The notes under the pieces were generated by a model that was given only the letters and a program-made list of their open reading frames with translations, made no database searches and was not told the DNA's origin. Positions 8,081-59,016 of a DNA stretch of 64,000 bases are shown here, piece by piece. Numbering within the stretch: the stretch's first letter is position 1; the number at the start of each line of letters is the position of its first letter. Both the position numbers and the translations under genes were made by a program. Source of the stretch: Bacteroidia bacterium (GTDB taxonomy: Bacteria > Bacteroidota > Bacteroidia > UKL13-3). Where the stretch lies: the NCBI GenBank assembly GCA_040403075.1, contig JBBALJ010000001.1:18731-82730 (forward strand), read 5' to 3'.

Positions 8081-10057
8081 TTAAGATTGATTTGACAGCA
8101 AATTTTCAACAGTAGTTTTTGAAAGCTCAATTTTTTTGTCAAGGCTCTCGTATACTGAATTTTTGCTTTGAAATTCAGGAACAATCTCTTTCATTTTAGC
8201 AACAATTGCCATTTGATTTTGTTTGTTATAAAGTCCCAACAAGTCATTAGTAGAGTTTTGCACTTCCTGAAAATTATACAACCTTACTTTACCAATCATT
8301 ATTTTAGGGTGATGGGTAGGTAATGTATTTTCACCATCATTTAGCAACTCCTCATATATTTTTTCACCCGGACGTAAACCAGTATAAGCTATATTAATAT
8401 CCTTGCCCAATGTTAAACCTGATAGTTTAACCATTTTCTTGGCCAAGTCTATAATTTTAACAGACTTACCCATATCAAACACAAAAATCTCACCTCCTTT
8501 ACCCATATATCCTGCCTCAAGAACTAATTGGCAAGCCTCAGGTATGGTCATAAAATATCTAGTTATTTCTGGATGTGTAACCGTAATGGGTCCACCTTCA
8601 TTTATTTGTTTACGGAACTTTGGTATAACAGAGCCACTTGAGCCTAAAACATTTCCAAAACGAGTTGTAATAAATTTGGTATTTGCTTTTTGATTTAATA
8701 GTAATTCATTATTCAAAGATTGGACATAAATTTCAGCTATACGCTTAGATGCGCCCATCACATTTGTTGGATTAACTGCCTTATCAGTAGAAACCATAAC
8801 AAACTTTTCAACGCCAAAGTCAATTGATAAATCGGCTATATTTTTAGTCCCCCCTACATTTGTCTTAATAGCTTCCGAAGGATTACTTTCCATCAAAGGA
8901 ACATGTTTATAGGCAGCAGCATGATAAACTATCTCTGGTCTGAATTTCTCGAAAATATTTCGCATTCTGTTCTCGTTTCCAATATCAGCCAATATTAATT
9001 CAGTACACCTTAAAAACTCGTTTTTGTGCTTATCCAATAGCTCATGCTCCAAATCGTATAATTTTATTTCCGAGCTATCAATGGCAACCAATTTCTTTGG
9101 CCTAAAATTAAGTATTTGATTAACCAGTTCGCTACCAATTGAACCTGCGGCTCCGGTTACCATAACAACCTTTCCATCTAATTGGTTGCTAATACCCTGC
9201 TTATCCAATTCAATTGTATCACGTTCAATCAAATCTTCTATGTTAACATTTTTAATCTGATTGAAACTCAATTCTCCATTAATCCATTTCTCTACAGGCG
9301 GAACTGTTCGTACATTCACATTAAAGTTTAAGCACTTTTCTATAATTTCTTGTTTTCTATTTTTACTAAGATTGGTAGGTGTTAGGATAAGTGTATCTAA
9401 ATTGAATTTATTAATTACATTTTCAAAATCATTATCAAAATTATATATCTCAATTCCATCAATTGATTTACGAATTTTCTTTGGGTTATCATCAAAAAAA
9501 GCTGCAACCTTCGTATTTATAGCTCTATATTGATCCAATTTCTTTTTAGTTGTAATTCCAGCCTCACCAGCACCAAATATGGCATAGGTAATTTGTTCGC
9601 CTTTTGCAGATTGATAGGATATTTTCAAGAAGGCAACTTTTACAGCCATTCTAAAAGCGGCAAGTAAAAATGCACTTATAATAAAATCGAGAACAACAAT
9701 TGAAAGTGGAATATAGGCAGTTTTGTCTGGGCTAAATGACCTATAAAAGAAATCAATAGTAATTAATGCTATAGAACTTAAAAGAGTGGTATATAATATT
9801 TTGATGCCATCTTGAACACCTGTATGTCTAACTATACCTGAATACAACCTAAAATAGGTCATAAAGAGCGTTTTGACAATAATCACAACCGGTAAAACTC
9901 TGAAAACAGCCTCAACTAATCTTGAATCAAATTTAAAACTATATCTAAGTACAACAGATAAAATAAAGGCTGCTGCACAGATTCCTAAATCAAAAGCAAA
10001 TATTAGCCATCTAGGAATACTATTCGAGTGATTAAATAATAATTTTAAATACTTCAT
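8081..10057 (-). CDS. Membrane-anchored UDP-HexNAc 4,6-dehydratase (CapD/WbpM/PglF family)
   Basis: 658 aa with an N-terminal region of about 4 TM segments. Two Rossmann regions are present (AIFGAGEAG; VMVTGAAGSIGSEL), plus HAAAYKHVPLMESNP and the VSTDKAVNPTNVMGASKR catalytic region. Confidence 0.9.
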   Translation of the reverse strand: MKYLKLLFNHSNSIPRWLIFAFDLGICAAAFILSVVLRYSFKFDSRLVEAVFRVLPVVIIVKTLFMTYFRLYSGIVRHTGVQDGIKILYTTLLSSIALITIDFFYRSFSPDKTAYIPLSIVVLDFIISAFLLAAFRMAVKVAFLKISYQSAKGEQITYAIFGAGEAGITTKKKLDQYRAINTKVAAFFDDNPKKIRKSIDGIEIYNFDNDFENVINKFNLDTLILTPTNLSKNRKQEIIEKCLNFNVNVRTVPPVEKWINGELSFNQIKNVNIEDLIERDTIELDKQGISNQLDGKVVMVTGAAGSIGSELVNQILNFRPKKLVAIDSSEIKLYDLEHELLDKHKNEFLRCTELILADIGNENRMRNIFEKFRPEIVYHAAAYKHVPLMESNPSEAIKTNVGGTKNIADLSIDFGVEKFVMVSTDKAVNPTNVMGASKRIAEIYVQSLNNELLLNQKANTKFITTRFGNVLGSSGSVIPKFRKQINEGGPITVTHPEITRYFMTIPEACQLVLEAGYMGKGGEIFVFDMGKSVKIIDLAKKMVKLSGLTLGKDINIAYTGLRPGEKIYEELLNDGENTLPTHHPKIMIGKVRLYNFQEVQNSTNDLLGLYNKQNQMAIVAKMKEIVPEFQSKNSVYESLDKKIELSKTTVENLLSNQS

Positions 10058-11836: not shown

Positions 11837-12289
11837 CTACGAATTCTGGGATTTAAAAAAGTAGGAAACTCCTAATACGAAAGGTACTATTGGATTCAAT
11901 AATATTATATTTAACTTTTGGTAGAGTTGCCTAAGAATTATTGGTTCTGAAAATGCAAAGTAGAAATAAAATGGAAAGAAAATAATTAGTACAAGCGTCT
12001 GTATCAGGATTACAGCTTTAGAAAATTTGATATCCAAAAATAACATATGGATAATTATGACGGCTGAAACATTATTTATAATGTACCTGAGCAATTTGTT
12101 TATTGCAAAATTTACTTCATTGTGATGGCTATGATTGAATTCGTAAAACCCATTCAGATTAATACAAAAACATAATACATCAAAATTCTGAAACAGAAAG
12201 GCTACGGCCAAACCTATTGAAGCTAGTGTGCCTAATGAAAATCTTAAGGAATTATTTAGTAGCATCCTCTTTAAAATTTGATGCACCAT
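11837..12289 (-). CDS. Exosortase F system-associated 4-TM membrane protein (TIGR04127-like)
   Basis: 150 aa with four hydrophobic segments. It overlaps the 3' end of the XrtF-like gene by 38 nt (14 nt if the second ATG at 12265 is used). The segment LLRYIINNVSAVIIIHMLFLD matches my recollection of this family. Assigned mainly from its position next to XrtF. Confidence 0.6.
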   Translation of the reverse strand: MVHQILKRMLLNNSLRFSLGTLASIGLAVAFLFQNFDVLCFCINLNGFYEFNHSHHNEVNFAINKLLRYIINNVSAVIIIHMLFLDIKFSKAVILIQTLVLIIFFPFYFYFAFSEPIILRQLYQKLNIILLNPIVPFVLGVSYFFKSQNS

Positions 12290-12785
12290 AATTATTTACC
12301 CAAAAAATAAATAATAGAAATACCAGTGAATAAATAAGTGCAGTAAAGGCATACTCATGGAGAAAAGAAAACCATTCGTGATGATTCAAGGCCACATAAA
12401 ATAAGGTGGAAACACGCATTACATTTAATAAAAAAACACCCAATAGTCCAATGGATAAAAATAGAACTTTTGATTTTATTGCTCCTTTAAATGATAAGAT
12501 GGATGCAAAAAAAGTAATCATGACACTTACTCCATTGCAACCTTCACTTACTGTAATATAATTTACCTTGTTTAAGTAAAACAATACTCGTGGGTGTAAA
12601 TCTGAGTATATCAGCGAAACATCATAACCAATTGAAATCAATATTCTTTGAGAAACGATAGCAACTAAATTTGATATCCCATCAATTTGATTACCCAAAT
12701 AATTTATCCAAAGTAGATAAAGTAGGTTTAAGAAAAGGTACAATCCTACAAATTTGGTGGCAAAAACTATAAGTTTCTTTTGCAT
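12252..12785 (-). CDS. xrtF: Exosortase family protein, XrtF-like (minimal exosortase)
   Basis: 177 aa and polytopic. The ordered Cys/Arg/His signature of exosortases/archaeosortases is present: VSEGCNGVSVM, LLNVMRVSTL, FLHEYAF. Size and pairing with a small partner gene fit the Flavobacteriia XrtF type. Confidence 0.75.
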   Translation of the reverse strand: MQKKLIVFATKFVGLYLFLNLLYLLWINYLGNQIDGISNLVAIVSQRILISIGYDVSLIYSDLHPRVLFYLNKVNYITVSEGCNGVSVMITFFASILSFKGAIKSKVLFLSIGLLGVFLLNVMRVSTLFYVALNHHEWFSFLHEYAFTALIYSLVFLLFIFWVNNYGASNFKEDATK

Positions 12786-12796
12786 TGTGTAAACAA

Positions 12797-13945
12797 TTAT
12801 GAAATACCTTGAGACCTAAGTCCCCCTATTAATGTCTCACAAATTTCTTTTAACAATTTTTCATTCATCTCTGTGTGAATAGGCAATGAAAAAACAGTTT
12901 GACTTGCGAGTTCAGACATAGGAAAATCATTAATACTATTAGCATCTGATGAGTATGCCAACTGATTGCATGCAACTGTCGGGTAATATACCATGGTTTG
13001 TATGCCACTTTCCAATAAATATTTTCTTAATTTATTCCTGTCAATTCTTTGCGATAATCTAATAGTATACTGATGAAAAACATGACTAGAGAAAACACTT
13101 CTAAAGGGGATTATTAAGTCTTGATATTTTCCCAAATATGTATCATAATAATGAGCTGCTGTATTTCTTTTGGATTCATAAGAATTCAAATATTTAAGCT
13201 TAACTCTTAGTATAGCAGCTTGTATACTATCAAGTCTCGAATTAACTCCTATTAGCTCATGCACATATAGCTCTCTTTGGCCATGATTTGCTATCATTCT
13301 TATTTTTAGGGCTAATTCATCATCATTTGTCATAATAGCTCCTCCATCTCCCATGCAACCTAAGTTTTTAGATGGAAAAAAAGAAGTGATGCCTATATGA
13401 CCTATCGTCCCAGTTCGCTTTTTATCACCATCAGAAAATGTATATATCGCACCCAAAGATTGAGCATTATCTTCAATAATAAATAGATTGTGCTTTTTTG
13501 CCATTTGAACAATTGACTTCATCTCAGCACTCTGACCAAATAAATGCACTGGAATGATGGCCTTAGTCTTATGTGTTATTTTCGATTCAATTTTGCTTAC
13601 ATCTAAATTGAATGATTCAATATCAATATCAACCATAATTGGATTTAAACCCAATAAAACAATAACTTCGATGGCTGCGGGATAAGTAAATGCAGGTACA
13701 ATAACTTCATCACCTTTTTCTAAACCCAACGCCATCAATGCAATTTGAATGGCATCTGTCCCATTACCACATCCTATAACATGTTTAACTCCTAAATATG
13801 CGGCCAATTCATTTTCAAAACATGCAACCTCATTCCCTTTTACAAAAACTGAACTTTCTATCACCTTTTGGATAGCATTGTCTAGTTCGGATTTTATTTT
13901 TGCATGCTGACTTTTAAGGTCAACCATTTGAATTTTCAAACTCAT
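12797..13945 (-). CDS. wbpE: DegT/DnrJ/EryC1-type PLP sugar aminotransferase, WbpE-like (3-aminotransferase of the 2,3-diacetamido-uronic acid pathway)
   Basis: 382 aa. QMVDLKSQHAKIKSELDNAI..., GNGTDAIQIALMALG and a PSKNLG region (PLP lysine). Operon context with WbpD-like and WbpB-like genes. Confidence 0.8.
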   Translation of the reverse strand: MSLKIQMVDLKSQHAKIKSELDNAIQKVIESSVFVKGNEVACFENELAAYLGVKHVIGCGNGTDAIQIALMALGLEKGDEVIVPAFTYPAAIEVIVLLGLNPIMVDIDIESFNLDVSKIESKITHKTKAIIPVHLFGQSAEMKSIVQMAKKHNLFIIEDNAQSLGAIYTFSDGDKKRTGTIGHIGITSFFPSKNLGCMGDGGAIMTNDDELALKIRMIANHGQRELYVHELIGVNSRLDSIQAAILRVKLKYLNSYESKRNTAAHYYDTYLGKYQDLIIPFRSVFSSHVFHQYTIRLSQRIDRNKLRKYLLESGIQTMVYYPTVACNQLAYSSDANSINDFPMSELASQTVFSLPIHTEMNEKLLKEICETLIGGLRSQGIS

Positions 13946-14523
13946 CTATTTAGCTTAATTACCTTTCCATCTTCTAACAAATACTTTGAAGAAGTTTCTT
14001 TGCATAAAGCAATTCCATTTTCATCAAATCGCAACTTATTACCGTATTCACTAACCCATCCTATTTGCCTTGCAGGATTGCCAATTAATAATTCAAAATC
14101 TTTAACATTTTTGGTAACAACTGCTCCTGCTCCAATCATGGCATAAGAGCCAATTTCAACTCCACAAATAATGGTTGCATTTGCCCCTATACTTGCCCCT
14201 TTTTTAATTAGAGTTCTTTTATATTCTTCTTTCCTATTAACAGTACTTCTAGGATTAATAACGTTAGTGAATACCATGGAAGGACCCAAAAACACATCGT
14301 CTTCACACTCTACACCTGTATATATTGATACGTTATTCTGAACTTTATTATTGTGACCAATTATAACACCATCGGCAATAAATACATTCTGTCCAATATT
14401 GCAATTGGAACCTATAACAGCCGAACCCATTATATGCGAAAAATGCCAGACTTTTGTTCCGGCACCTATATTACAGCCATGTTCTACTATGGCTGTATTG
14501 TGTATAAAAATTTCTAAATTCAT
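13942..14523 (-). CDS. wbpD: Left-handed beta-helix N-acetyltransferase, WbpD/WlbB-like
   Basis: 193 aa with hexapeptide repeats (IGAGTKVWHFSHIMGSAVIGSNCNIGQNVFIADGVIIG...). 4-nt ATGA overlap with the WbpE-like gene. Confidence 0.8.
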   Translation of the reverse strand: MNLEIFIHNTAIVEHGCNIGAGTKVWHFSHIMGSAVIGSNCNIGQNVFIADGVIIGHNNKVQNNVSIYTGVECEDDVFLGPSMVFTNVINPRSTVNRKEEYKRTLIKKGASIGANATIICGVEIGSYAMIGAGAVVTKNVKDFELLIGNPARQIGWVSEYGNKLRFDENGIALCKETSSKYLLEDGKVIKLNR

Positions 14524-14553
14524 TGATTACATTTTATGGAAAATTTCAATTCG

Positions 14554-15069
14554 TTAATACAATAAAATTGGCACATTCTTAAAATAAAAATCCACTCCAA
14601 TATTAATATTAATAAGTTTTTCATAATTAACTCTTGAATCGGGGTAACCAATATGACTGCTAAGAAAAAAACCAAGCCTACTAGTAAATGGTTTAATTAA
14701 TTTTATATTCATTCCAAACTGGTTAATTTTTTTTCCATCGTCTTTAGGTTGTACCTGCAATAAACTTAATCCAATTTGACTACAAAGATTTTTATTCAAT
14801 ATTCTATTTTTTTGATAACCTATTGAAAAAAAAGAAGAATATTTTCTAGTTTCACCTGGTTCAATAAAAACATCAAGATATACTTTATCATAAAATTTCA
14901 TTCCTAGGTTGATGAATGGAATTGTTGGGTAACCTGCACTAAGACCAATATTTATTCGTTGACGCCAAACTTCAAATTGATTGATTGATGAGGTATCGGC
15001 AGACTGTGCTTTTAACTTAATCGAAATTGAGCAAAGTGCGAAAATAAAACTTAAAAAAAATAATTTCAA
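14554..15069 (-). CDS. Small secreted protein, probable 8-strand-size outer-membrane beta-barrel
   Basis: 171 aa. Signal peptide MKLFFLSFIFALCSISIKLKAQ. Alternating hydrophobic strand-like pattern with aromatic girdle residues, ending ...FKNVPILLY. It sits between the WbpB-like and WbpD-like genes. Confidence 0.5.
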   Translation of the reverse strand: MKLFFLSFIFALCSISIKLKAQSADTSSINQFEVWRQRINIGLSAGYPTIPFINLGMKFYDKVYLDVFIEPGETRKYSSFFSIGYQKNRILNKNLCSQIGLSLLQVQPKDDGKKINQFGMNIKLIKPFTSRLGFFLSSHIGYPDSRVNYEKLININIGVDFYFKNVPILLY

Positions 15070-15084
15070 TTTTGAATTTCTTAA

Positions 15085-16101
15085 TTAATAAATTTCACTA
15101 TCATAAATTCTTTCAATAATCTCAACCACTTTCATTCCTTCTTCAGCAGAGGTTTTAATATCTTCAACTCCATTTAGAACATCAATAACATTTTGAATTA
15201 CATATTGATGATTAGCTGCACTCCCTTTATAATTTCCATAATCATTGGCAGCATTCGTTTCAGATAACATAGGCATAACATAATTTTTGATATCACAATG
15301 CAGCACTTTGTCCATGTACTGACCCCCAACTTTTACAGAACCCTTCTCCCCTATCACAGTTATACTACTTTCTAAATTCTTATTCCAAACACTTGTACTA
15401 TAACTAATTGTTCCAGACCCGCCTTTTACTAAATCAAAATTAATTAAACCAGTATCTTCAAACTCAATTGAATCATTGTGATTATAGTTATAGAATCGAG
15501 TTCGTACATTTTTTATGTCACCAAAAATCCAATACAAAGTATCTACAAAATGACTGAACTGAGTAAACAATGTACCACCATCCAATTGCTTTTTGCCCTT
15601 CCACGAAGTATTTAAATAATAATGATTATCTCTATTCCAAAAACAATTGATTTGAACATGATAAATGGCACCTAACAAATCAGTTTCAACAATCGATTTT
15701 AGCCAAGATGAAGGAGGCGAATAACGATTTTGCATAACGCAAAATACATTTCTATTATTACTTTTTGCTGTATCAATAACCAATTGGCACTCTTGACTAG
15801 TCAAGCCCATTGGTTTTTCAATTACTACATGAATTCCTTGATTCAAAAAAAATGTTGCCTGTTCACAATGCAAATAATTGGGTGTGGCAATACAAACAAC
15901 ATCTATTGAATCTTGATGTTTTACTAAATCATGAATGTCTGAATAAATTGGACAACTATAGGCATTCTTTAAACTCGAATGCAAATCATGATTAATTTCA
16001 ACCATCGCTACTATTTTTGCATCCTCTCTAACTTGAATTAAATCAGCATAGCGTTTACCAATATGTCCTAAGCCAACAATTGCAAATGTAATTTTGCTCA
16101 A
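15085..16101 (-). CDS. wbpB: Gfo/Idh/MocA NAD-dependent oxidoreductase, WbpB-like (UDP-GlcNAcA 3-dehydrogenase type)
   Basis: 338 aa. N-terminal Rossmann FAIVGLGHIGKRY and the EKPM motif (VVIEKPMGLT). Context with the WbpE/WbpD-like genes. Confidence 0.8.
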   Translation of the reverse strand: MSKITFAIVGLGHIGKRYADLIQVREDAKIVAMVEINHDLHSSLKNAYSCPIYSDIHDLVKHQDSIDVVCIATPNYLHCEQATFFLNQGIHVVIEKPMGLTSQECQLVIDTAKSNNRNVFCVMQNRYSPPSSWLKSIVETDLLGAIYHVQINCFWNRDNHYYLNTSWKGKKQLDGGTLFTQFSHFVDTLYWIFGDIKNVRTRFYNYNHNDSIEFEDTGLINFDLVKGGSGTISYSTSVWNKNLESSITVIGEKGSVKVGGQYMDKVLHCDIKNYVMPMLSETNAANDYGNYKGSAANHQYVIQNVIDVLNGVEDIKTSAEEGMKVVEIIERIYDSEIY

Positions 16102-16110
16102 ACCTAATAT

Positions 16111-17247
16111 CTATTTTTGATTTAAGACTTCAAGAATTATAGAAACTACAAGCTCCAAATCGGAGGTTGAAAGATTAGATCCTGAAGGCAAACAAAGACC
16201 ATTATCAAAAAGTTTGGCCGAGGTTCCATCACCATAAAATGGATACTTTTCGAATATGGGTTGCAAGTGCATTGGTTTCCACAATGGTCGGGACTCAATA
16301 TTCTTTTTATCTAAAGCTAACCTGATATCTTCACGCGTCACTCCATTGGTTTCGCTTGGATTAACTATTATACAAGTCAACCATCTGTTACTAAAAGAGC
16401 CTTCAGATTCATTATGAAAACTGACTCCCTTTATGTTTGACAATTTGGATTTATAAAACTCAAAATTTGATCTTCTTTGCGCAACCCTATCATTTAATAC
16501 AGTCATTTGGCCACGGCCAATTCCGGCACAAACATTACTCATTCTATAATTATATCCTATATGTGAATGTTGATAATGTGGAGCATTATCCCTTGCTTGT
16601 GTTGCTAGAAAACGTGCCTTATTAATATGAGCCTCATTGTTTGAAATCAAGGCTCCACCACCAGAAGTGGTAATTATTTTATTTCCATTAAATGACAATA
16701 CACCCAATTCTCCAAATGTACCACAAGCTTGTCCATTTAATGTGGATCCTAAACCTTCAGCTGCATCTTCAATTATTGGAATTTCATATTCATTAGCAAT
16801 GGCTACTATTTCATCCATCTTTGCTGGCATTCCATAGAGATGAACTGGTATTATTGCTTTTGGTTTCTTGCCATTCTTAATTCTATCTTCGATAGCTAAG
16901 CGAAGATGTTTTGGGCACATATTCCAAGTGTCTTCTTCCGAATCAATAAAAATAGGAATAGCTCCTTGATAAGCTATTGGATTCGCAGAAGCAGAGAATG
17001 TGAAACTTTGACACAATACTTCATCACCAGCAACCACACCCAACATTATTAAAGCCAAATGAATAGCAGATGTACCTGAACTTAAAGCAGCAGCGTATCC
17101 AGATTTTGTATATGTTACTAAATCTTTTTCAAAACCATCTACATGTGGACCTAGAGGGGCAATCCAATTCGTATCGAAAGCTACTTTTACATTTTCAAAT
17201 TCTTTACCACACATATGTGGCGATGAAAGCCAAATTTTATTGTTCAT
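16111..17247 (-). CDS. DegT-family PLP aminotransferase, PglE/EpsN-like (4-aminotransferase for 4-keto-6-deoxy-HexNAc)
   Basis: 378 aa. IWLSSPHMCGKEFENVKVAFDTNWIAPLGPHVDGFE, SGTSAIHLAL and SFNGNKIITTSGGG (PLP lysine region). Confidence 0.85.
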   Translation of the reverse strand: MNNKIWLSSPHMCGKEFENVKVAFDTNWIAPLGPHVDGFEKDLVTYTKSGYAAALSSGTSAIHLALIMLGVVAGDEVLCQSFTFSASANPIAYQGAIPIFIDSEEDTWNMCPKHLRLAIEDRIKNGKKPKAIIPVHLYGMPAKMDEIVAIANEYEIPIIEDAAEGLGSTLNGQACGTFGELGVLSFNGNKIITTSGGGALISNNEAHINKARFLATQARDNAPHYQHSHIGYNYRMSNVCAGIGRGQMTVLNDRVAQRRSNFEFYKSKLSNIKGVSFHNESEGSFSNRWLTCIIVNPSETNGVTREDIRLALDKKNIESRPLWKPMHLQPIFEKYPFYGDGTSAKLFDNGLCLPSGSNLSTSDLELVVSIILEVLNQK

Positions 17248-17250
17248 TGA

Positions 17251-17763
17251 TTATTTTTGTTTTGATATAGTTTTAAATTTATCGGATAAACTTTTATTGA
17301 AAATGAAAATCAGGAATGGCATTGAAGGGAAAAACAACAAAAAGTTGTAAACGTGCGAAGCACGAGTCATAATATTTGTCCCAATCCATATCATGATGTT
17401 ATCGTCACTTAAACAAAATAATTTTCCTATGTGTTTTAGGAAAAAAATTAAAATCAATGCAGTAAGCAGCAATTTTAAACTAGAATCCCCATTAAGGAAT
17501 AAAGATATTCTGCACTGGATTAGTAAGCAGATTAAAAAAACATGGAAATTTAAACTGAATATAAAATAATTGACTTTTGTTTTCAAAACATCAAACTGGA
17601 ATAATACCTCATTTCCATTTTTTTTAAAGTCTGACTTTTCTCTAATAAAAGCCAAATTGTTGTCTATAAAATCAAATTTGTAAACATAGCCAAGATAATT
17701 TACTAATGCATAAAGCAACACCAATATTATAATAAATAGTTTATTTTTCGGAGTCATTTTCAT
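17251..17763 (-). CDS. Small 4-TM membrane protein, partner of the second exosortase-like gene
   Basis: 170 aa with four hydrophobic segments and a loop of about 35 aa after TM1. This is the same architecture as the XrtF partner at 11837..12289. 23-nt overlap with the upstream exosortase-like ORF. Confidence 0.5.
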   Translation of the reverse strand: MKMTPKNKLFIIILVLLYALVNYLGYVYKFDFIDNNLAFIREKSDFKKNGNEVLFQFDVLKTKVNYFIFSLNFHVFLICLLIQCRISLFLNGDSSLKLLLTALILIFFLKHIGKLFCLSDDNIMIWIGTNIMTRASHVYNFLLFFPSMPFLIFIFNKSLSDKFKTISKQK

Positions 17764-18316
17764 TTGAAGGAGCTTGAATTATTGTCCATCTATGCCAAAG
17801 CCATATAATATATCCATATACTATAAACATAAAGGTATAATGATGGTGAAAATCTGCATATTCTCTACTAAACATTGATATCCATGCAATTATGAATATT
17901 CTAATGTTATTGAGAAGGAAAATACTTAAAAGCCCAAATATAAGAAACTCGAAAAATCGTTTTCTGCCCCCAAAGGCTATCAAAAAACCAAAAAACATGG
18001 CAAATAGTTCTAAACCATTGCAAGCTGTAGCAATTCCTATAATTGGCTTACCATTTACTAAAATATATTGCTTTGTACGTATTGCTTTATCTTCTCCTTC
18101 AATATTTCGGTATTTAGTTACAAAATTATCCGACAATCTCACATCATAACCCATCCATACAAACACTTGAGCTGTTATTTTAGCCTCAATAAGCGTAATA
18201 GGATCATTTATCTCTTCCTCTTTAAATACTACTTTGTATAAAAGAGTCCAAATCAACCAAATTGCGATGGCTTTTAATAGAAAAAAAAATAGAGGATGTT
18301 TAATATTTAGTAACAT
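17741..18316 (-). CDS. Divergent minimal exosortase/archaeosortase-family protein
   Basis: 191 aa and polytopic. Ordered signature IGIATACNGLELF (Cys), LLNNIRIFII (Arg), DFHHHYTF (His), with spacing like the XrtF-like ORF at 12252..12785. Confidence 0.65.
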   Translation of the reverse strand: MLLNIKHPLFFFLLKAIAIWLIWTLLYKVVFKEEEINDPITLIEAKITAQVFVWMGYDVRLSDNFVTKYRNIEGEDKAIRTKQYILVNGKPIIGIATACNGLELFAMFFGFLIAFGGRKRFFEFLIFGLLSIFLLNNIRIFIIAWISMFSREYADFHHHYTFMFIVYGYIIWLWHRWTIIQAPSNENDSEK

Positions 18317-18322
18317 ATAATT

Positions 18323-18916
18323 TTATATTTTTTCTTTAGCAGGAACTCCTAAACATGTTTTGCCGTCATTAATATCCTTTGTCACAACTGCACCTGCGCC
18401 TACTGTGCACCATTTGCCAATTTTGATGTTTTGTAACACCACTGCTCCACTGCCGATAAAACTCCCTTCACCAACATGCACATTACCTGAAAGATGAACT
18501 CCTGACATAATTGATACATAATCTTCGATAATCGTATCATGTCCAATAGTACTATTTGAATTTATGATAACATGGTTACCTATTTTAATATCAACGGATA
18601 TTACAACTCCTTTTGAAATAATATTTCCAACGCCAATTATATTGCTTTTATGAAAACTCAATTTATGGTGTAAAACATTCACAAAATTTAATGATTCATT
18701 TAGTGAGATTTTCTTTCTAGTTTTAGAATCAGCTATTGCAATTACGCAACTTACTTCATTTCCAATGGTATTAATAACTGGCTTATCATGCAACCTATTT
18801 AATGTTTTATAATCATCAATAAAACCAATGACATTATTATACATTGAATCTTCTATAAGCCAAAGTGTTTCTTTGCCCATGCCACCTGCACCATATATCC
18901 ATAATGGTTCTTGCAT
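18323..18916 (-). CDS. NeuD/PglD-family sugar N-acetyltransferase
   Basis: 197 aa. N-terminal Rossmann-like IYGAGGMGKE followed by hexapeptide repeats (IGNHVIINSNSTIGHDTIIEDYVSIMSGVHLSGNVHVGEGSFIGSGAVV). Confidence 0.85.
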   Translation of the reverse strand: MQEPLWIYGAGGMGKETLWLIEDSMYNNVIGFIDDYKTLNRLHDKPVINTIGNEVSCVIAIADSKTRKKISLNESLNFVNVLHHKLSFHKSNIIGVGNIISKGVVISVDIKIGNHVIINSNSTIGHDTIIEDYVSIMSGVHLSGNVHVGEGSFIGSGAVVLQNIKIGKWCTVGAGAVVTKDINDGKTCLGVPAKEKI

Positions 18917-18921
18917 TTTAT

Positions 18922-19980
18922 TTATTTTAAAAGTTCACTCTCCTTCATCAAAATTGGCAGCGAATCAACATCTCTTAGGAATATTAAATCTTTTTCGAAT
19001 TCGTACATTTTATAGCTTTTGTCAAAGTTCAAATCCTCATCAAGTAATCTTATGGTATCAGAAGCAAAATTGGCTCCACCAGCTGCAAAACACTGGGTGA
19101 AGGCAACATGTCTAACATTTATTTCCGTAATATATGGTTTACCGTTTTCATCTTCTTTGAAGTCAACTGTATAAAATCCATGTTTAGTAGATTTGCTATT
19201 TTCAAATAAAAATTCTAGAGAATTTATAGCCAATTTAACCAATTCGGGTTCATTAATCAACCTACCAAATGATGTATTTCCAGTGATACCTGAAGGTGCC
19301 ACTTTTGACATAATGTAATTAACCCTTTCGCCACAAGCTGATCTAATTATGTTTCCTTCGAAATATAATAATTTACACGCCAAATTACGACCAGAAAGAA
19401 ACTTACTAGCTAAAAAGGTTTTAACATTTGGATTTATTTGAATCCAGTTTTGAAGTGATTCCATTGAATCAATCCTAAGTGAGCCCAATCCACTAGTTCC
19501 GCTGCTACTTCTTACCCAAAAATCACTTCCAAGCTTTTCAAAAACACCTCCAAGATTGGTTTCATTTCGACTAAATTCAACTGAGGGAGGAACAACACCC
19601 AAAGGATTTAACAATTCTGTCATTTGCGCCTTATCCACTAAAAGTTCAGCCATCTTTGATGATGGGAGCAAAGCTTTACAGGGCAATTCACCTTTTTCAC
19701 TCTTTTTACTCCATTCCATCACTTCCAATTCTGGCAAAATAACGGCATAATCAATATTATTCTCTAAAACAATTTTGCTTATCACTTCCCAATAATTTGC
19801 ATCAGTACATCTTGGTATTACATAAGATTTACTGAATAACTCGCTCTGATATAGTCCAATTGAAAGTGGATTAATATCAGTGGCAATAAGTTCAAATCTT
19901 TTGTAAAAGCTGTACTTTTTGAGTGCAATTGCAAAACTTCTTGGTGTAGGTCCACCTACTCCTGTAATTAATATTTTCAT
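18922..19980 (-). CDS. ATP-grasp domain ligase (carbamoyl-phosphate-synthase-like fold)
   Basis: The track ORF extends to 20022, but the ATG at 19978-19980 (MKILITGVGGPTPRS...) removes the overlap with the upstream gene. ATP-grasp-like core with YITEINVRH near the C-terminus. Confidence 0.65.
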   Translation of the reverse strand: MKILITGVGGPTPRSFAIALKKYSFYKRFELIATDINPLSIGLYQSELFSKSYVIPRCTDANYWEVISKIVLENNIDYAVILPELEVMEWSKKSEKGELPCKALLPSSKMAELLVDKAQMTELLNPLGVVPPSVEFSRNETNLGGVFEKLGSDFWVRSSSGTSGLGSLRIDSMESLQNWIQINPNVKTFLASKFLSGRNLACKLLYFEGNIIRSACGERVNYIMSKVAPSGITGNTSFGRLINEPELVKLAINSLEFLFENSKSTKHGFYTVDFKEDENGKPYITEINVRHVAFTQCFAAGGANFASDTIRLLDEDLNFDKSYKMYEFEKDLIFLRDVDSLPILMKESELLK

Positions 19981-19984
19981 ATTC

Positions 19985-20590
19985 TTAATTCTTTCCGTTA
20001 AATGGTAACATTGGCCTATCAATACTTTGATTTACTCCCTCAGACATAATAACCTTTAAAAAGGTAAGCCACAGTATTTTAATATCAAGCCACATACTAA
20101 GATTTTCAACATAATACACATCCAGATTAAATTTTTCTGTCCAACTAATGCTATTACGCCCGTTAACTTGGGCCCAACCTGTAATACCAGGTTTTGCAAG
20201 ATGTCGTTTTTTTTGTTCTTCAGAGTATAAAGGTATGTATTTAAATAAAAGTGGGCGAGGGCCAACCAAGCTCATATCACCCTTTAATACATTAATGAGT
20301 TGAGGCAGTTCATCAATTGAGGTTTTTCTAATAAATCGGCCTATGGGGGTTAAACGAATATTATCGGGCATCAGCATACCATTTTTATCTTTATTATTGT
20401 TCATAGAGCGAAATTTAATCACTTTGAATGGTCGCTCTTTAAAACCTGGTCTTTCCTGTAGGAAAAATGGTTCTCCTTTATTAATAAAAGATAGAATAAT
20501 CGTAAAAAGAAAAAGAATTGGACTTACAATTAGCAAAATTACAATACTAAAAAATAAGTCAATTAATCGTTTCAAAAATATTCTATACAT
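19985..20590 (-). CDS. Initiating undecaprenyl-phosphate sugar-phosphate transferase (small PglC/WecP-type bacterial sugar transferase)
   Basis: 201 aa. One N-terminal TM, then FLQERPGFKERPFKVIKFRSM, DELPQLINVLKGDMSLVGPRP and KPGITGWAQVNGR. Confidence 0.9.
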   Translation of the reverse strand: MYRIFLKRLIDLFFSIVILLIVSPILFLFTIILSFINKGEPFFLQERPGFKERPFKVIKFRSMNNNKDKNGMLMPDNIRLTPIGRFIRKTSIDELPQLINVLKGDMSLVGPRPLLFKYIPLYSEEQKKRHLAKPGITGWAQVNGRNSISWTEKFNLDVYYVENLSMWLDIKILWLTFLKVIMSEGVNQSIDRPMLPFNGKN

Positions 20591-20591
20591 C

Positions 20592-21593
20592 TTATCTTAA
20601 TAAGTTCTTTAAACCTCGATTAATAGGTAACTGCCATAATAATTTGCACCAATCGTGATTTCCTTCAATCAACCCTGGTCCCTTTTCTGTAATTACAACA
20701 TCCCATCCTATTGAGCGATTTGAGGTATTATATAACGCGGCCTTTTTAACCAATTCAATTGTTTCATTCCACATTGGCACCTTAAATCCAGTGATTCTTA
20801 CACCTGTGACAGGATGAATTTCCGAAGCCTCTTTTGTAATATCACTATAGACTGCTGCCCTAATTGCAATACCCGATTTTTCATCCAATTCTACAGCCAT
20901 GTTGCCCGCTGCCAAATTATCAACTGGAGAATTCACTGAAATTCGCAACCTACAACCCAAAATTTCAACTTGGTTATCATTTGTCAATTGAGTAAAAATC
21001 CTAACTGTATTTACTGCAGAAGGTGATAATCTGTTAATGTCTGGATGTTGGATGATAAACTCTTCAACCAAATCAAATCCATCATTTTCTATTTCGTTTA
21101 AAAATGTTTTATCAGATATATTTTTAGTTTCTATGATTTTAACCCCTTTACCACACTTACCATCTGCAGTTTTTAAAACTAATTTCCCAGATGGGCTATC
21201 CAACAATTGTTTTAATAATTCAGGATTAGACATTAACTCAACCAAATCTGCGACCTTATGAACAAAAAAAGGATGATATGCTTTGTAAAACTTAGTTTTG
21301 TCATCCAATACATCTCTATTTCCTTTGGGATTCATTCGAAGTTGATATTCGTACATATGTCCTGTGCCAGCCCATTCCAACTTCTGTAATTTTGTTTTCT
21401 CAAAGAATCTAAATTGAAAATATTCTAAAATACTTATGTTATACTTTAAACTGTTAAAGATTATTTTAAACAATAAAGAAATTCTATTATCTCCGCTGAA
21501 ACTTATCAAATAATTAGAAAATTTCATAAAGAGCACTTTATCTAAATTGTTAAAGTAATAGCCCAAATATATTATACGATTTAAATATCTCAT
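20592..21593 (-). CDS. Sugar-transfer-associated ATP-grasp protein (ATPgrasp_ST-like)
   Basis: 333 aa. It lies immediately upstream of the phosphoglycosyltransferase gene (1-nt gap). Features include KLVLKTADGKCGKGV, IEGNHDW and an N-terminal helical region typical of this family as I recall it. Confidence 0.6.
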   Translation of the reverse strand: MRYLNRIIYLGYYFNNLDKVLFMKFSNYLISFSGDNRISLLFKIIFNSLKYNISILEYFQFRFFEKTKLQKLEWAGTGHMYEYQLRMNPKGNRDVLDDKTKFYKAYHPFFVHKVADLVELMSNPELLKQLLDSPSGKLVLKTADGKCGKGVKIIETKNISDKTFLNEIENDGFDLVEEFIIQHPDINRLSPSAVNTVRIFTQLTNDNQVEILGCRLRISVNSPVDNLAAGNMAVELDEKSGIAIRAAVYSDITKEASEIHPVTGVRITGFKVPMWNETIELVKKAALYNTSNRSIGWDVVITEKGPGLIEGNHDWCKLLWQLPINRGLKNLLR

Positions 21594-22717
21594 TTTTCTT
21601 TGCTAATAATATCAATTAAATCAGAAGCTGAAATAAATTCAACCTCTGGCCATTTCATAACTATTTTAGTTAGTAGTATTTTTAAATTGCTCAACCCAAT
21701 TTTTCTATTTTCCTCACTAATAAATCCACTAAAGTTTATTCTATGTGAGCTAATATTAGCGACACGATTCAGATTAAAAGCTATTTCTATTTGATTCATA
21801 GCAAGATTCACAGGATCATAGCTAGTTTTCTCTGATGGCTCAAAAACCACATTTCTAACAATATTGAAAATATTATTTCTTTTGTTAAATTTGGTTGTCG
21901 TAAAACTTTTTTCAAATTTTCCGTTACCCAAATGCACCTTAGCATAAAATGGTTTATCAATGGCCTTTAAACCATATTTAAATAAGTTCGCCTCCAAGAA
22001 AGGAGGAAATTGTTGAGATGGGGGCGTGAAAACAAAAGCTTTTTTATGAAAAACTTTTTCAAATTCTTCTAGTCCGGTTGAAATTACACTATCAAATTCT
22101 GATGTTTCTATAAAATCATTAAAGGAGAATGCGGCTGTGTATATTCTATTACCATTTAATTCAGGCAAAAATGAATATGTTCTATTTTCAAATAATAACT
22201 TTAGGAGTTTGAAATTATTGTTACGTTGATACTTAAATTCCTCTATGTTTACATGTTCTCTGCCGTGAAATTCTGGAGATAATAATTTCATTTTTATACC
22301 CTCTTGCCATAAGTTCCATGTATTTTGATAATAATTAGGGTAAAGTTGTGCAAGTTTTTCAAAAGTTACAGGCAATTGCTCATAAGAATATTCTTCAAAA
22401 TTACTTTTTAAAATCGCTTCATAATTTAAATTACATGGAAGAGCATAACAAGTAAAAATAGGATAATTGCCGAATTTATCCTTTACAGATGTTAATGCTT
22501 CATAAAGCATGGATAAATCTTCAGTAGTTTCTAAACTGTCATACATATCAAATCTAGAATTGATACCAATACCTAATTTCTCAATTTGATTAATTATTTC
22601 TTTAGAACCAATCCTTAAATTTCCATAATCGTCAATTGAAAGAACAATAAGTTTTCTATTTGTTTTCCAACCATTAATATTCTTTAAATTATCAATTATT
22701 TTGGTTTTTATACTCAT
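21590..22717 (-). CDS. CE4/NodB-like polysaccharide deacetylase-fold protein (paralog A)
   Basis: 375 aa. LIVLSIDDYG (Asp-Asp), FHGREHVN (H-x3-H) and SSHRINF. Clear paralog of 32963..34078 along its full length. Confidence 0.5.
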   Translation of the reverse strand: MSIKTKIIDNLKNINGWKTNRKLIVLSIDDYGNLRIGSKEIINQIEKLGIGINSRFDMYDSLETTEDLSMLYEALTSVKDKFGNYPIFTCYALPCNLNYEAILKSNFEEYSYEQLPVTFEKLAQLYPNYYQNTWNLWQEGIKMKLLSPEFHGREHVNIEEFKYQRNNNFKLLKLLFENRTYSFLPELNGNRIYTAAFSFNDFIETSEFDSVISTGLEEFEKVFHKKAFVFTPPSQQFPPFLEANLFKYGLKAIDKPFYAKVHLGNGKFEKSFTTTKFNKRNNIFNIVRNVVFEPSEKTSYDPVNLAMNQIEIAFNLNRVANISSHRINFSGFISEENRKIGLSNLKILLTKIVMKWPEVEFISASDLIDIISKEK

Positions 22718-51060: not shown

Positions 51061-51348
51061 TTAATTCTTACTTTTAGACAAGTTTTTCAATTTAACTATA
51101 TCATTATTTACAAGAGCTTCTTTTTTTACTCTCGACCATTTTTTCAATTGTTTCTCTCTTTCAATAGCTTGTTTAACATCAATAAACTCTTCAAAATAAA
51201 CTAAATTTAATGGTCTCTTTTTAAATGTATATGATCCTGAATAAAAACCATTTTGATGCTGTAATACCCTTTCCTCAAGATTATTAGTAACACCAATGTA
51301 ATACGAATTATCAGAACATAATAAGATATAAATATAATAAGTATTCAT
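51061..51348 (-). CDS. GIY-YIG nuclease-family protein (UPF0213-like, about 95 aa)
   Basis: YYIYILLCSDNSYYIGVTNNLEERVLQHQNG...KQAIEREKQLKKWSR. GIY/YIG, R, and E...K-W elements are in canonical order. Confidence 0.85.
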   Translation of the reverse strand: MNTYYIYILLCSDNSYYIGVTNNLEERVLQHQNGFYSGSYTFKKRPLNLVYFEEFIDVKQAIEREKQLKKWSRVKKEALVNNDIVKLKNLSKSKN

Positions 51349-58497: not shown

Positions 58498-59016
58498 TCA
58501 ATTTAACAATTTTAAACTATTCAATGGTAAATTTACAATCACATTCTGCTTAATACTGTTAAAATTAACCATAACTTGTTTAACACTTCTATATTCAACT
58601 ATTTGCCCTTTAATTCCAATCATGGGACCAGAAATAATTTCAACATTATCACCAACAGCTACATCCTCAAAAAGCACATTTAATTCAAAATTAGAACCTA
58701 GCATTTTCCTTATAAAAGCTATATCCTTTTCACTTACAACCACAGGTGACTTTTCAAAGTTTACAAATTTAACAATTCCATTCACATTTAATATGTCATA
58801 ATAATAACTTATACTAGTGTTAATGAATAAATAACTTTTAAACAAGGGCTCCTCAACCCATTTTTTCCTATCACTCCATTGTTTCAATGTTCTATTCAAT
58901 GGCAAATACGTCTCAAAACCAAGTAATTGAAGTTCGGCATCAACCTTTTTCTCGTATCGAGGCTTGGTATACAATAAGTACCATTTTTTGTTTTTATCTT
59001 TTATGTTAATAAACAA
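58498..59016 (-). CDS. UpxY-family (NusG/RfaH-like) transcription antiterminator, first gene of the locus
   Basis: 172 aa. KWYLLYTKPRYEKKV NGN-domain start and a C-terminal KOW-like GDNVEIISGPMIGIKGQIVE. The annotated start is TTG (59014-59016), an in-frame TGA lies two codons upstream, and there is no in-frame ATG before the KWY motif. Confidence 0.8.
   Translation of the reverse strand: MFINIKDKNKKWYLLYTKPRYEKKVDAELQLLGFETYLPLNRTLKQWSDRKKWVEEPLFKSYLFINTSISYYYDILNVNGIVKFVNFEKSPVVVSEKDIAFIRKMLGSNFELNVLFEDVAVGDNVEIISGPMIGIKGQIVEYRSVKQVMVNFNSIKQNVIVNLPLNSLKLLN

Follow-up and report, generated by a model that had tools for sequence, protein, structure and literature searches.

The 64,000-nucleotide stretch analyzed here (hereafter the window), from the Bacteroidia bacterium assembly GCA_040403075.1 (contig JBBALJ010000001.1, positions 18,731 to 82,730), encodes on its minus strand a small exosortase, Xrt1, and a small polytopic membrane protein, partner-1, which together define a previously unmodeled pair within a predicted capsule or exopolysaccharide (EPS) locus. 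Sequence comparisons place Xrt1 in the XrtF/XrtX group of Bacteroidota exosortases, yet in a clade of its own that falls below every specific model cut-off and is not accompanied by a gene for a PID-CTERM protein. The layout of a mini-exosortase with a small membrane partner is already curated in NCBIfam for two Bacteroidota systems; what is new is the Xrt1 clade itself, a partner family for which no model exists, the lack of an adjacent PID-CTERM gene, and the behavior of the pair as variable capsule genes. A glycan-linked role for the pair is plausible, and the reading that we favor, with a probability of roughly 0.4, is that Xrt1 and its partner constitute a cysteine transpeptidase that joins or processes a peptide or protein on an amino-sugar glycan or its lipid-linked precursor.

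Xrt1 was scored against profile hidden Markov models (HMMs) of the known exosortase families. It passes the generic exosortase/archaeosortase signature TIGR04178 at 35.6 bits (E=8.3e-9, cut-off 23), whereas its best specific model, XrtX of NCBIfam (NF046081), is failed at 118.1 bits (E=3.6e-34, cut-off 170) and XrtF (TIGR04128) at 54.4 bits (cut-off 90). No match of Xrt1 to the Pfam model Exosortase_EpsH (PF09721, gathering threshold 25.7 bits) is obtained at E≤0.01, and precomputed tables give a weak hit. The match to exosortases is nevertheless far above chance, and on these scores Xrt1 is a true exosortase-family protein; public databases name its clade mates merely as "exosortase/archaeosortase family protein". 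A preliminary description of this DNA had recognized the two open reading frames (ORFs), of 191 and 170 residues with a 23-nt overlap, and had read an ordered Cys/Arg/His signature from the motifs IGIATACNGLELF, LLNNIRIFII, and DFHHHYTF; both ORFs are as described, the motifs are present in the translation, and the HMM scores together with the aligned residues bear out the assignment. An alignment of 66 sequences from three clades shows no variation at Cys99, Asn100, Asn136, and Arg139 and conservation of at least 90% at His158, the codons for Cys99, Arg139, and His158 lying at 18020-18022, 17900-17902, and 17843-17845 of the window, and 63 columns are invariant in the 13-sequence alignment of Xrt1 (alignment A2).

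The AlphaFold2 (AF2) model of Xrt1, calculated from the 66-sequence alignment, has a pLDDT (predicted local distance difference test) of 88.2 and a pTM (predicted template modeling score) of 0.80. Five transmembrane (TM) helices make up the model, with residues 59-96 forming a small beta-sheet loop and Cys99 opening the helix that follows, and the Cys, Arg, and His residues occur in order on successive TM helices. To judge from the order of the helices and from the basic GGRKR loop (residues 116-120), Cys99, Arg139, and His158 would appear to share one side of the membrane. A Foldseek search of the PDB with the model gives no match at E≤0.001, and profile searches of the PDB using the exosortase and partner profiles also return nothing meaningful.

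Partner-1 and Xrt1 form a two-gene inner-membrane module that is translationally coupled. Partner-1 matches no NCBIfam or Pfam family; NF046082, the membrane protein model of the XrtX system, gives no hit even at E≤10 (cut-off 75 bits), and TIGR04127, the corresponding model of the XrtF system, is not matched. An exhaustive HMMER search of 1.84 billion proteins finds relatives in only 5 representative clusters. In its AF2 model (pLDDT 73.8) a first TM helix is followed by a three-stranded sheet and four helices, and its C-terminus carries an invariant F-P-x-x-P-F-L motif and then a basic tail (alignment A3).

In a 45-taxon neighbor-joining tree, which is distance-based and possibly subject to compositional bias, the Xrt1 clade is supported by 87% of bootstraps, and a group containing the Xrt1 clade, an Xrt1-like protein from locus L021, and XrtF is split from all PID-CTERM-associated enzymes at 84%; Xrt1 groups with bona fide XrtX in 0 of 200 bootstraps. 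Other members of the clade score 118-129 bits with the XrtX model, also under the cut-off of 170. The suggestion that the pair might represent an undescribed exosortase subclass stands in part: the layout had already been curated, as XrtF with TIGR04127 and as XrtX with NF046082 and PID-CTERM, whereas Xrt1 forms its own clade below the specific cut-offs and its partner has no model. As a separate observation on this classification, the exosortase at L016:7001-7555 (Flavitalea sp. BT771), named XrtF by NCBI, scores 94.8 bits with the XrtF model, just over the cut-off, but 141 bits with the XrtX model, and a PID-CTERM gene lies upstream of it; some PID-CTERM-associated enzymes are therefore mislabeled by the curated XrtF/XrtX boundary.

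The absence of a local substrate gene coincides with this phylogenetic split. The preliminary description had seen no ORF in the window encoding a C-terminal motif followed by a TM segment and a basic tail, and three six-frame scans of the 64 kb likewise yield no credible candidate. The scans used a generic search for a C-terminal TM segment with a basic tail and two PID-CTERM HMMs, the first of which missed a 61-residue protein in locus L030 and was rebuilt from all variants; the best PID-CTERM score in the window is 4.5 bits, as against 54-74 bits for positive controls. PID-CTERM proteins, from Chitinophagaceae and other lineages, begin with a signal peptide and a short stretch of low complexity and end with a P[ILV][DN]G motif, a TM helix, and a basic tail. 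Each of the 14 PID-clade loci with sufficient upstream sequence carries from one to three PID-CTERM genes directly upstream of the exosortase gene, and the HMM also finds such genes outside its training set (L009, L022, L023, and L026). It finds none in 15 loci of the lineage of the window (L001-L006, L011-L015, L019, L020, and L034), none in the Xrt1-like locus L021 or in three classical XrtF loci, and none on the short contigs L024 and L028.

Several features of the PID-CTERM loci deserve mention in their own right. The PID-CTERM precursor that accompanies a bona fide XrtX (182 bits) at L030:963-1148(+) is only 61 residues long, and removal of the signal together with cleavage at PID would leave about 10 residues (QPPPPPATPID), a remnant suggestive of a transferable peptide tag rather than of a cargo protein. 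In six loci of lineages other than that of the window (L016, L017, L025, L027, L029, and L030), the cassette of PID-CTERM, exosortase, and partner genes is directly downstream of a gene for a large surface protein, which bears a Por_Secre_tail domain in L017 and, as judged by eye, a C-terminus resembling those of type IX secretion system (T9SS) cargo in L025, L027, L029, and L030. Deletions of xrtF and Fjoh_1449 in Flavobacterium johnsoniae have most of their phenotypes in common with T9SS mutants (PMC10936215), and a link of XrtX and XrtF to the anchoring of T9SS cargo is possible. In Chitinophagaceae (L008, L009, L010, and L023) the module is repeated in tandem, with two exosortase genes and two or three genes for PID-CTERM proteins in the space of 3 kb, and an apparently broken exosortase copy is present at about position 8897-9250 of L010.

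Comparison with sister loci places the Xrt1 pair in the variable part of its locus. The loci were collected by scans of genomes and metagenomes on exact peptide patterns, which returned few of them. Their gene order is PglD-Xrt1-partner-DegT-GFO-hexapeptide-DegT-Xrt2-partner-DUF8201-PglF, with the segment PglD-Xrt-partner-DegT kept in L002, L006, L014, L019, L020, and L034. Because the same order is found in 8 of 8 sister loci covering the position, the pair, described earlier as wedged inside a sugar sub-operon, is not a chance insertion. Against this fixed order, sequence identity varies abruptly. The flanking genes for DegT378 (the aminotransferase next to partner-1) and PglF are, respectively, 95% and 96% identical to the window in L006 and 94% and 96% in L014, whereas identity is 58% and 40% (L006 and L014) for Xrt1, 59% and 50% for PglD, and 37% and undetectable for partner-1. 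The breakpoint at the DNA level is sharp and coincides with the start codon of the DegT378 gene: in blastn comparison with L006, a stretch of 90.4% identity starts at precisely 17248, and over partner-1 no identity can be detected. Conserved flanks together with diverged Xrt1, partner-1, and PglD place the cassette in a variable, type-specific part of the capsule locus, and this pattern of divergence matches that of the structure-specific genes of glycan loci.

These data also weigh against the possibility that the pair is a decaying or functionless paralog of an XrtF pair carried in a recombining capsule locus, which is very unlikely: despite very fast divergence and a G+C content (26-30%) that is low relative to the flanking genes, both ORFs are intact in every covering locus (the Xrt1 gene of L011 is truncated by the end of its contig), the gene overlap is kept, and the catalytic residues and the 63 alignment columns noted above are invariant.

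The wider census of gene neighborhoods gives mixed support for a link to glycans. Genes of the Xrt1 clade always occur within sugar genes, and PID-type relatives are often beside glycolipid genes. Outside the lineage of the window a single Xrt1-like gene is found, that of L021, a locus assigned to another lineage because of its 44% GC; its product is 36% identical to Xrt1 and shares the FHHHYTF and FGG-K motifs, it has a partner gene and no PID gene, and it directly follows a gene assigned from its sequence as mannose-1-phosphate guanylyltransferase. In L025 and L027 a tight same-strand row comprises genes for PID-CTERM, exosortase, partner, polysaccharide deacetylase (PF01522), GT4, PglC, PglD, PglE, and PglF. 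Chitinophagaceae cassettes adjoin genes for UbiA, FAD-oxidase, SDR, HAD, GT4, and large polytopic proteins, a domain set from which these neighbors would appear to be polyprenyl-phospho-sugar genes.

A mechanism compatible with these observations can be outlined. Xrt1 and its partner would act as a Cys transpeptidase whose active site, like that of other exosortases, is on the periplasmic face of the inner membrane. Cys99 would attack a membrane-anchored polypeptide encoded outside the window, and the resulting thioester would be resolved onto an amine of the lipid-linked amino-sugar unit made by the locus itself, the sugar donating the amine being perhaps a 4-amino-4,6-dideoxyhexose or a sugar of 3-amino-uronic type. 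The outcome would be a peptide or protein joined to, or processed on, the glycan or its lipid-linked precursor. Given an acceptor that is the amino-sugar unit of the locus, the specificity of Xrt1 would shift with glycan type, and in the operon of L025 the deacetylase would supply the free amine. Precedents for such chemistry have been discussed by Veith et al. (2020; PMC7468200): exosortases are there proposed to conjugate proteins to an amino-acid-modified sugar of the Wbp/Vim type; rhombosortase, as the same paper recounts, joins protein C-termini to a moiety containing glycerophosphoethanolamine; and PorU, as the title and abstract may be read, performs the equivalent reaction with a linking sugar. 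A more ambitious version extends this scheme to PID-less mini-exosortases in general (the Xrt1 clade and perhaps XrtF as a whole), which would be ligases or processing enzymes on lipid-linked amino-sugar glycans rather than classical protein sorters, joining peptide or protein either to the repeat unit of the capsule or to a glycolipid that might serve T9SS cargo as an anchor, while the partner presents the lipid-linked substrate; in this general form the proposal is decidedly speculative and rather unlikely.

A number of points weigh against the transpeptidase reading. The neighbors of one classical XrtF pair (219 and 131 bits) are rpsO, Omp85, and GAF genes, none of them a glycan gene, and L029 and L030 have no glycan genes nearby, so that linkage to glycans is not a family-wide rule. 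It had been argued earlier that two copies in one glycan operon imply action on glycans; this step is an inference, favored by the constant location of the Xrt1 clade inside sugar genes and weakened by the XrtF pair just mentioned. All but one of the loci of the Xrt1 clade come from one lineage, and their conserved synteny is therefore weak evidence of function. Small membrane proteins may simply be under weak constraint, or the genes may hitch-hike in a region that recombines, and either could explain the fast divergence. It is entirely possible that the substrate gene resides elsewhere in the genome, the scan having covered 64 kb. PglD would be expected to acetylate the 4-amine, which would leave the scheme without its nucleophile unless a different amine serves. 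Finally, we know of no substrate or product for any XrtF- or XrtX-type enzyme, and the acceptor chemistry is consequently pure inference.

The first alternative to be weighed is that Xrt1 is an ordinary protein-sorting exosortase acting on proteins with a C-terminal signal, either a PID-CTERM variant or an unrecognized motif, encoded elsewhere in the genome. Its location in the capsule operon would then be merely co-expression with an envelope polymer, as for EPS-linked XrtA, the glycan being neither substrate nor acceptor. The nearest well-scoring model is indeed that of XrtX, and XrtX-like relatives in the score range of Xrt1 (113-141 bits) do carry PID-CTERM genes. Exosortase loci are, moreover, classically EPS-linked according to PMC7468200, and the search for a substrate was confined to the window. 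However, the substrate gene that lies directly upstream in 14 of 14 loci of the PID-associated clade is absent from every Xrt1-clade and XrtF locus examined, the tree separates PID-less from PID-associated enzymes (84%), and the cassette changes together with the variable glycan genes. On this balance of evidence ordinary sorting is unlikely, if by no great distance.

A second alternative, the one put forward in the preliminary description, dispenses with protein altogether: the Cys/Arg/His site would have been recruited to the lipid-linked repeat unit, where it might, for instance, transfer or trim a group (acyl, aminoacyl, or peptidyl) borne by an amino sugar. Such a modification would account for the failure to find a substrate gene in the window and in loci of the same lineage. 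It would also fit a locus in which amide-forming chemistry is abundant, with at least three ATP-grasp enzymes, a WbuX/HisH/HisF-like amidotransferase set, two DegT aminotransferases, and two acetyltransferases, and in which the cassette shares its variable block with PglD. The closest relatives of Xrt1, however, clearly have peptide substrates; to our knowledge, no exosortase, archaeosortase, or sortase acts on a non-peptide substrate. Protein-free modification is accordingly improbable.

It has also to be considered whether the partner is itself the substrate, or a pseudo-substrate, of a self-contained pair, with its C-terminal Pro-containing hydrophobic segment and basic tail docking in the exosortase site. 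Translational coupling of the two genes is in keeping with this idea, and so is a comparison of partner C-termini (alignments A3 for partner-1, A4 for partner-2, and A5 for Puia-type partners, with L021:2739-3200, L025:5616-6035, and L030:1851-2315), in which every family ends in a conserved Pro-containing hydrophobic stretch and then charged residues: FPSLPFLI...NK in partner-1, NPxxPFxL...K in partner-2, SPxLY in the Puia type, FSLPF in L021, and also LPFIL. These families lack significant mutual similarity, however, and homology among those of partner-1, partner-2, the Puia type, and L021 was rejected (BLASTP/hhalign E values of 0.033, 0.21, 0.2, and 0.014, of which 0.033, 0.2, and 0.014 are from hhalign; probability at most 3%). 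The motif is moreover part of the last TM segment and does not precede it, and PID-type systems have a separate substrate in addition to the partner, so that a substrate role for partner-1 is very improbable.

A second, paralogous cassette, noted in the preliminary description at 11837..12785 and substantiated here by the score of its exosortase, Xrt2, with the XrtF model (Table 1), is present in the conserved part of the locus, where the Xrt2 pair and the DUF8201 gene lie 5 kb downstream of the Xrt1 pair. Xrt2 is 27% identical to Xrt1 and matches Exosortase_EpsH at 27 bits (gathering threshold 25.7). Its relatives are named XrtF in public sources, and Xrt2 is a marginal XrtF, just above the model cut-off. 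With TIGR04127 (cut-off 35), partner-2 scores 13.3 bits (E=0.067) and its L002 ortholog, aligned to that same part of the model, 17 bits, compared with 130.7 bits for a classical control partner; partner-2 is thus probably a remote relative of this XrtF-associated protein. All sister loci long enough to reach beyond the Xrt2 pair have the DUF8201 gene next. The DUF8201 protein is itself observed to diverge faster (60-75% identity) across sister loci than the adjacent PglF (94-96%).

Table 1. Coordinates and supporting evidence for the two exosortase cassettes and neighboring genes of the window.
Feature	Coordinates	Strand	Evidence or remark
Xrt1, 191-aa mini-exosortase	17741..18316	-	HMM scores, alignment, AF2 model
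Partner-1, 170-aa polytopic membrane protein	17251..17763	-	Alignment A3, AF2 model
NeuD/PglB/VioB-family (PglD-type) sugar N-acetyltransferase	18323..18916	-	TIGR03570 192 bits (cut-off 160.8); PglD_N domain
DegT/LegC/PglE-like 4-aminotransferase (DegT378)	16111..17247	-	First gene of conserved 3' part of locus
GFO_IDH_MocA oxidoreductase, WbpB-like	15085..16101	-	Domain match
Hexapeptide acetyltransferase, WbpD-like	13942..14523	-	Domain match
DegT aminotransferase, WbpE-like	12797..13945	-	Domain match
Xrt2, 177-aa exosortase	12252..12785	-	XrtF 110.4 bits (cut-off 90); XrtX 106.4 bits
Partner-2, 150-aa membrane protein	11837..12289	-	Overlaps Xrt2 by 38 nt; alignment A4
LIC_10190-family/DUF8201 polytopic membrane protein, 556 aa	10162..11832	-	NF047510 263.7 bits
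PglF/CapD-like membrane-anchored UDP-GlcNAc 4,6-dehydratase	8081..10057	-	Final gene of locus
ATP-grasp enzyme	18922..20022	-	Upstream context
PglC-type small phosphoglycosyl transferase	19985..20590	-	Upstream context

The flanking genes of the Xrt1 pair are as had been recognized earlier, PglD-like on one side and PglE-like on the other (Table 1). Xrt1 is separated from the upstream N-acetyltransferase gene by 6 nt and partner-1 from the downstream DegT378 gene by 3 nt, and with gaps this short, in an uninterrupted series of genes on the minus strand, the pair must share a transcript with its neighbors. The bacillosamine-type set of membrane 4,6-dehydratase, DegT, NeuD/PglD, and PglC-type proteins is complete (4 of 4) at the level of domains and families, the sugar product itself being predicted, and the WbpB/WbpD/WbpE-like trio (12797..16101) separates the two exosortase cassettes. 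The whole locus extends from a NusG/UpxY-like gene (58498..59016) down to position 8081, about 51 kb, and includes genes for Wza, Wzc, Ugd, a MatE/Wzx-like flippase, an EpsG/Wzy-like polymerase, and several GT4 glycosyltransferases, in addition to the ATP-grasp enzymes and the WbuX/HisH/HisF-like set; by its gene content it is a predicted Wzx/Wzy capsule or EPS locus. The G+C content of the window varies from about 26 to 41% per kb.

Three further ORFs of the locus were noted. A strain-specific ORF of 171 residues at 14554..15069(-) is inserted between the genes for the WbpB-like and WbpD-like proteins and is missing in sister loci L006, L014, and L002; its product has a signal peptide and matches no family, and its GC is 27%. 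The ORF orf375 (21590..22717) was considered as a counterpart of the polysaccharide deacetylase of L025 and rejected, there being no similarity between them. A 95-residue ORF at 51061..51348(-) stands alone in a 600-nt gap of the capsule locus between genes that read as GDP-mannose-dehydratase-like and epimerase-like; in a reading of its sequence, it looks like a GIY-YIG-type nuclease and is possibly a mobile-element remnant.

XrtF-type exosortases occur in Bacteroidota, and the window and its relatives reveal an exosortase clade that has no substrate gene nearby, is tied to amino-sugar genes, and changes with capsule type, which provides a handle on the function of XrtF and XrtX. The PID-CTERM relatives, for their part, are encoded in one operon with a minimal deacetylase/GT4/PglCDEF pathway, and the two types of locus taken together render attachment of a peptide by an exosortase to an amine-bearing glycolipid directly testable. 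Should PID-less enzymes prove to be glycan ligases, this would be the first function for XrtF-type systems and a new form of glycan-peptide conjugation in Bacteroidota; should the idea of glycolipid attachment be wrong, what is left is only a divergent, generically annotated exosortase pair.

Among known systems, the one with the best-scoring specific model for Xrt1 is that of XrtX, which comprises exosortase X (NF046081), the membrane protein NF046082, and PID-CTERM (NF046080; Pfam PF28310). Xrt1 is likewise of about 170-200 residues, with the same Cys/Arg/His residues, an extended loop before the Cys, and a small polytopic partner overlapping the 3' end of its gene, but it differs in scoring below 170 bits, in having a partner without a match to NF046082, and in the absence of a PID-CTERM gene from the window. 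A literature search returned no paper mentioning XrtX, XrtY, PID-CTERM, LIC_10190, or DUF8201. The XrtF system, TIGR04128 with the membrane protein TIGR04127, is represented by Fjoh_1448/1449 of F. johnsoniae, in which deletion of xrtF or Fjoh_1449 abolishes biofilm, zorbs, and surface colonisation (PMC10936215). These deletions indicate that such pairs are functional, although the target is not revealed. The Xrt1 pair shares with XrtF the two-gene layout, the lack of a known sorting signal, and its place in the PID-less group of the tree, and is distinguished by the lower score of Xrt1 (54 against 90 bits), by a partner that TIGR04127 does not match, and by being embedded in, and varying with, sugar genes.

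The XrtA/EpsH-PEP-CTERM systems of EPS-producing Proteobacteria resemble the present one in their superfamily signature and their tie to polysaccharide loci. XrtA/EpsH enzymes have many PEP-CTERM substrates, and they are longer than the 191-residue Xrt1, as judged by the lengths of the EpsH models (254 positions in PF09721 and 241 in TIGR02602). The likeness to PorU, rhombosortase, and ArtA, of which the last attaches its substrate to lipid, is conceptual only, all three transferring a protein C-terminus to an amine on a sugar or lipid while being unrelated or distantly related proteins. In the case of PorU the comparison extends to the linking sugar, which is made by a Wbp/Vim pathway, and WbpB-, WbpD-, and WbpE-like genes are found between the two cassettes here.

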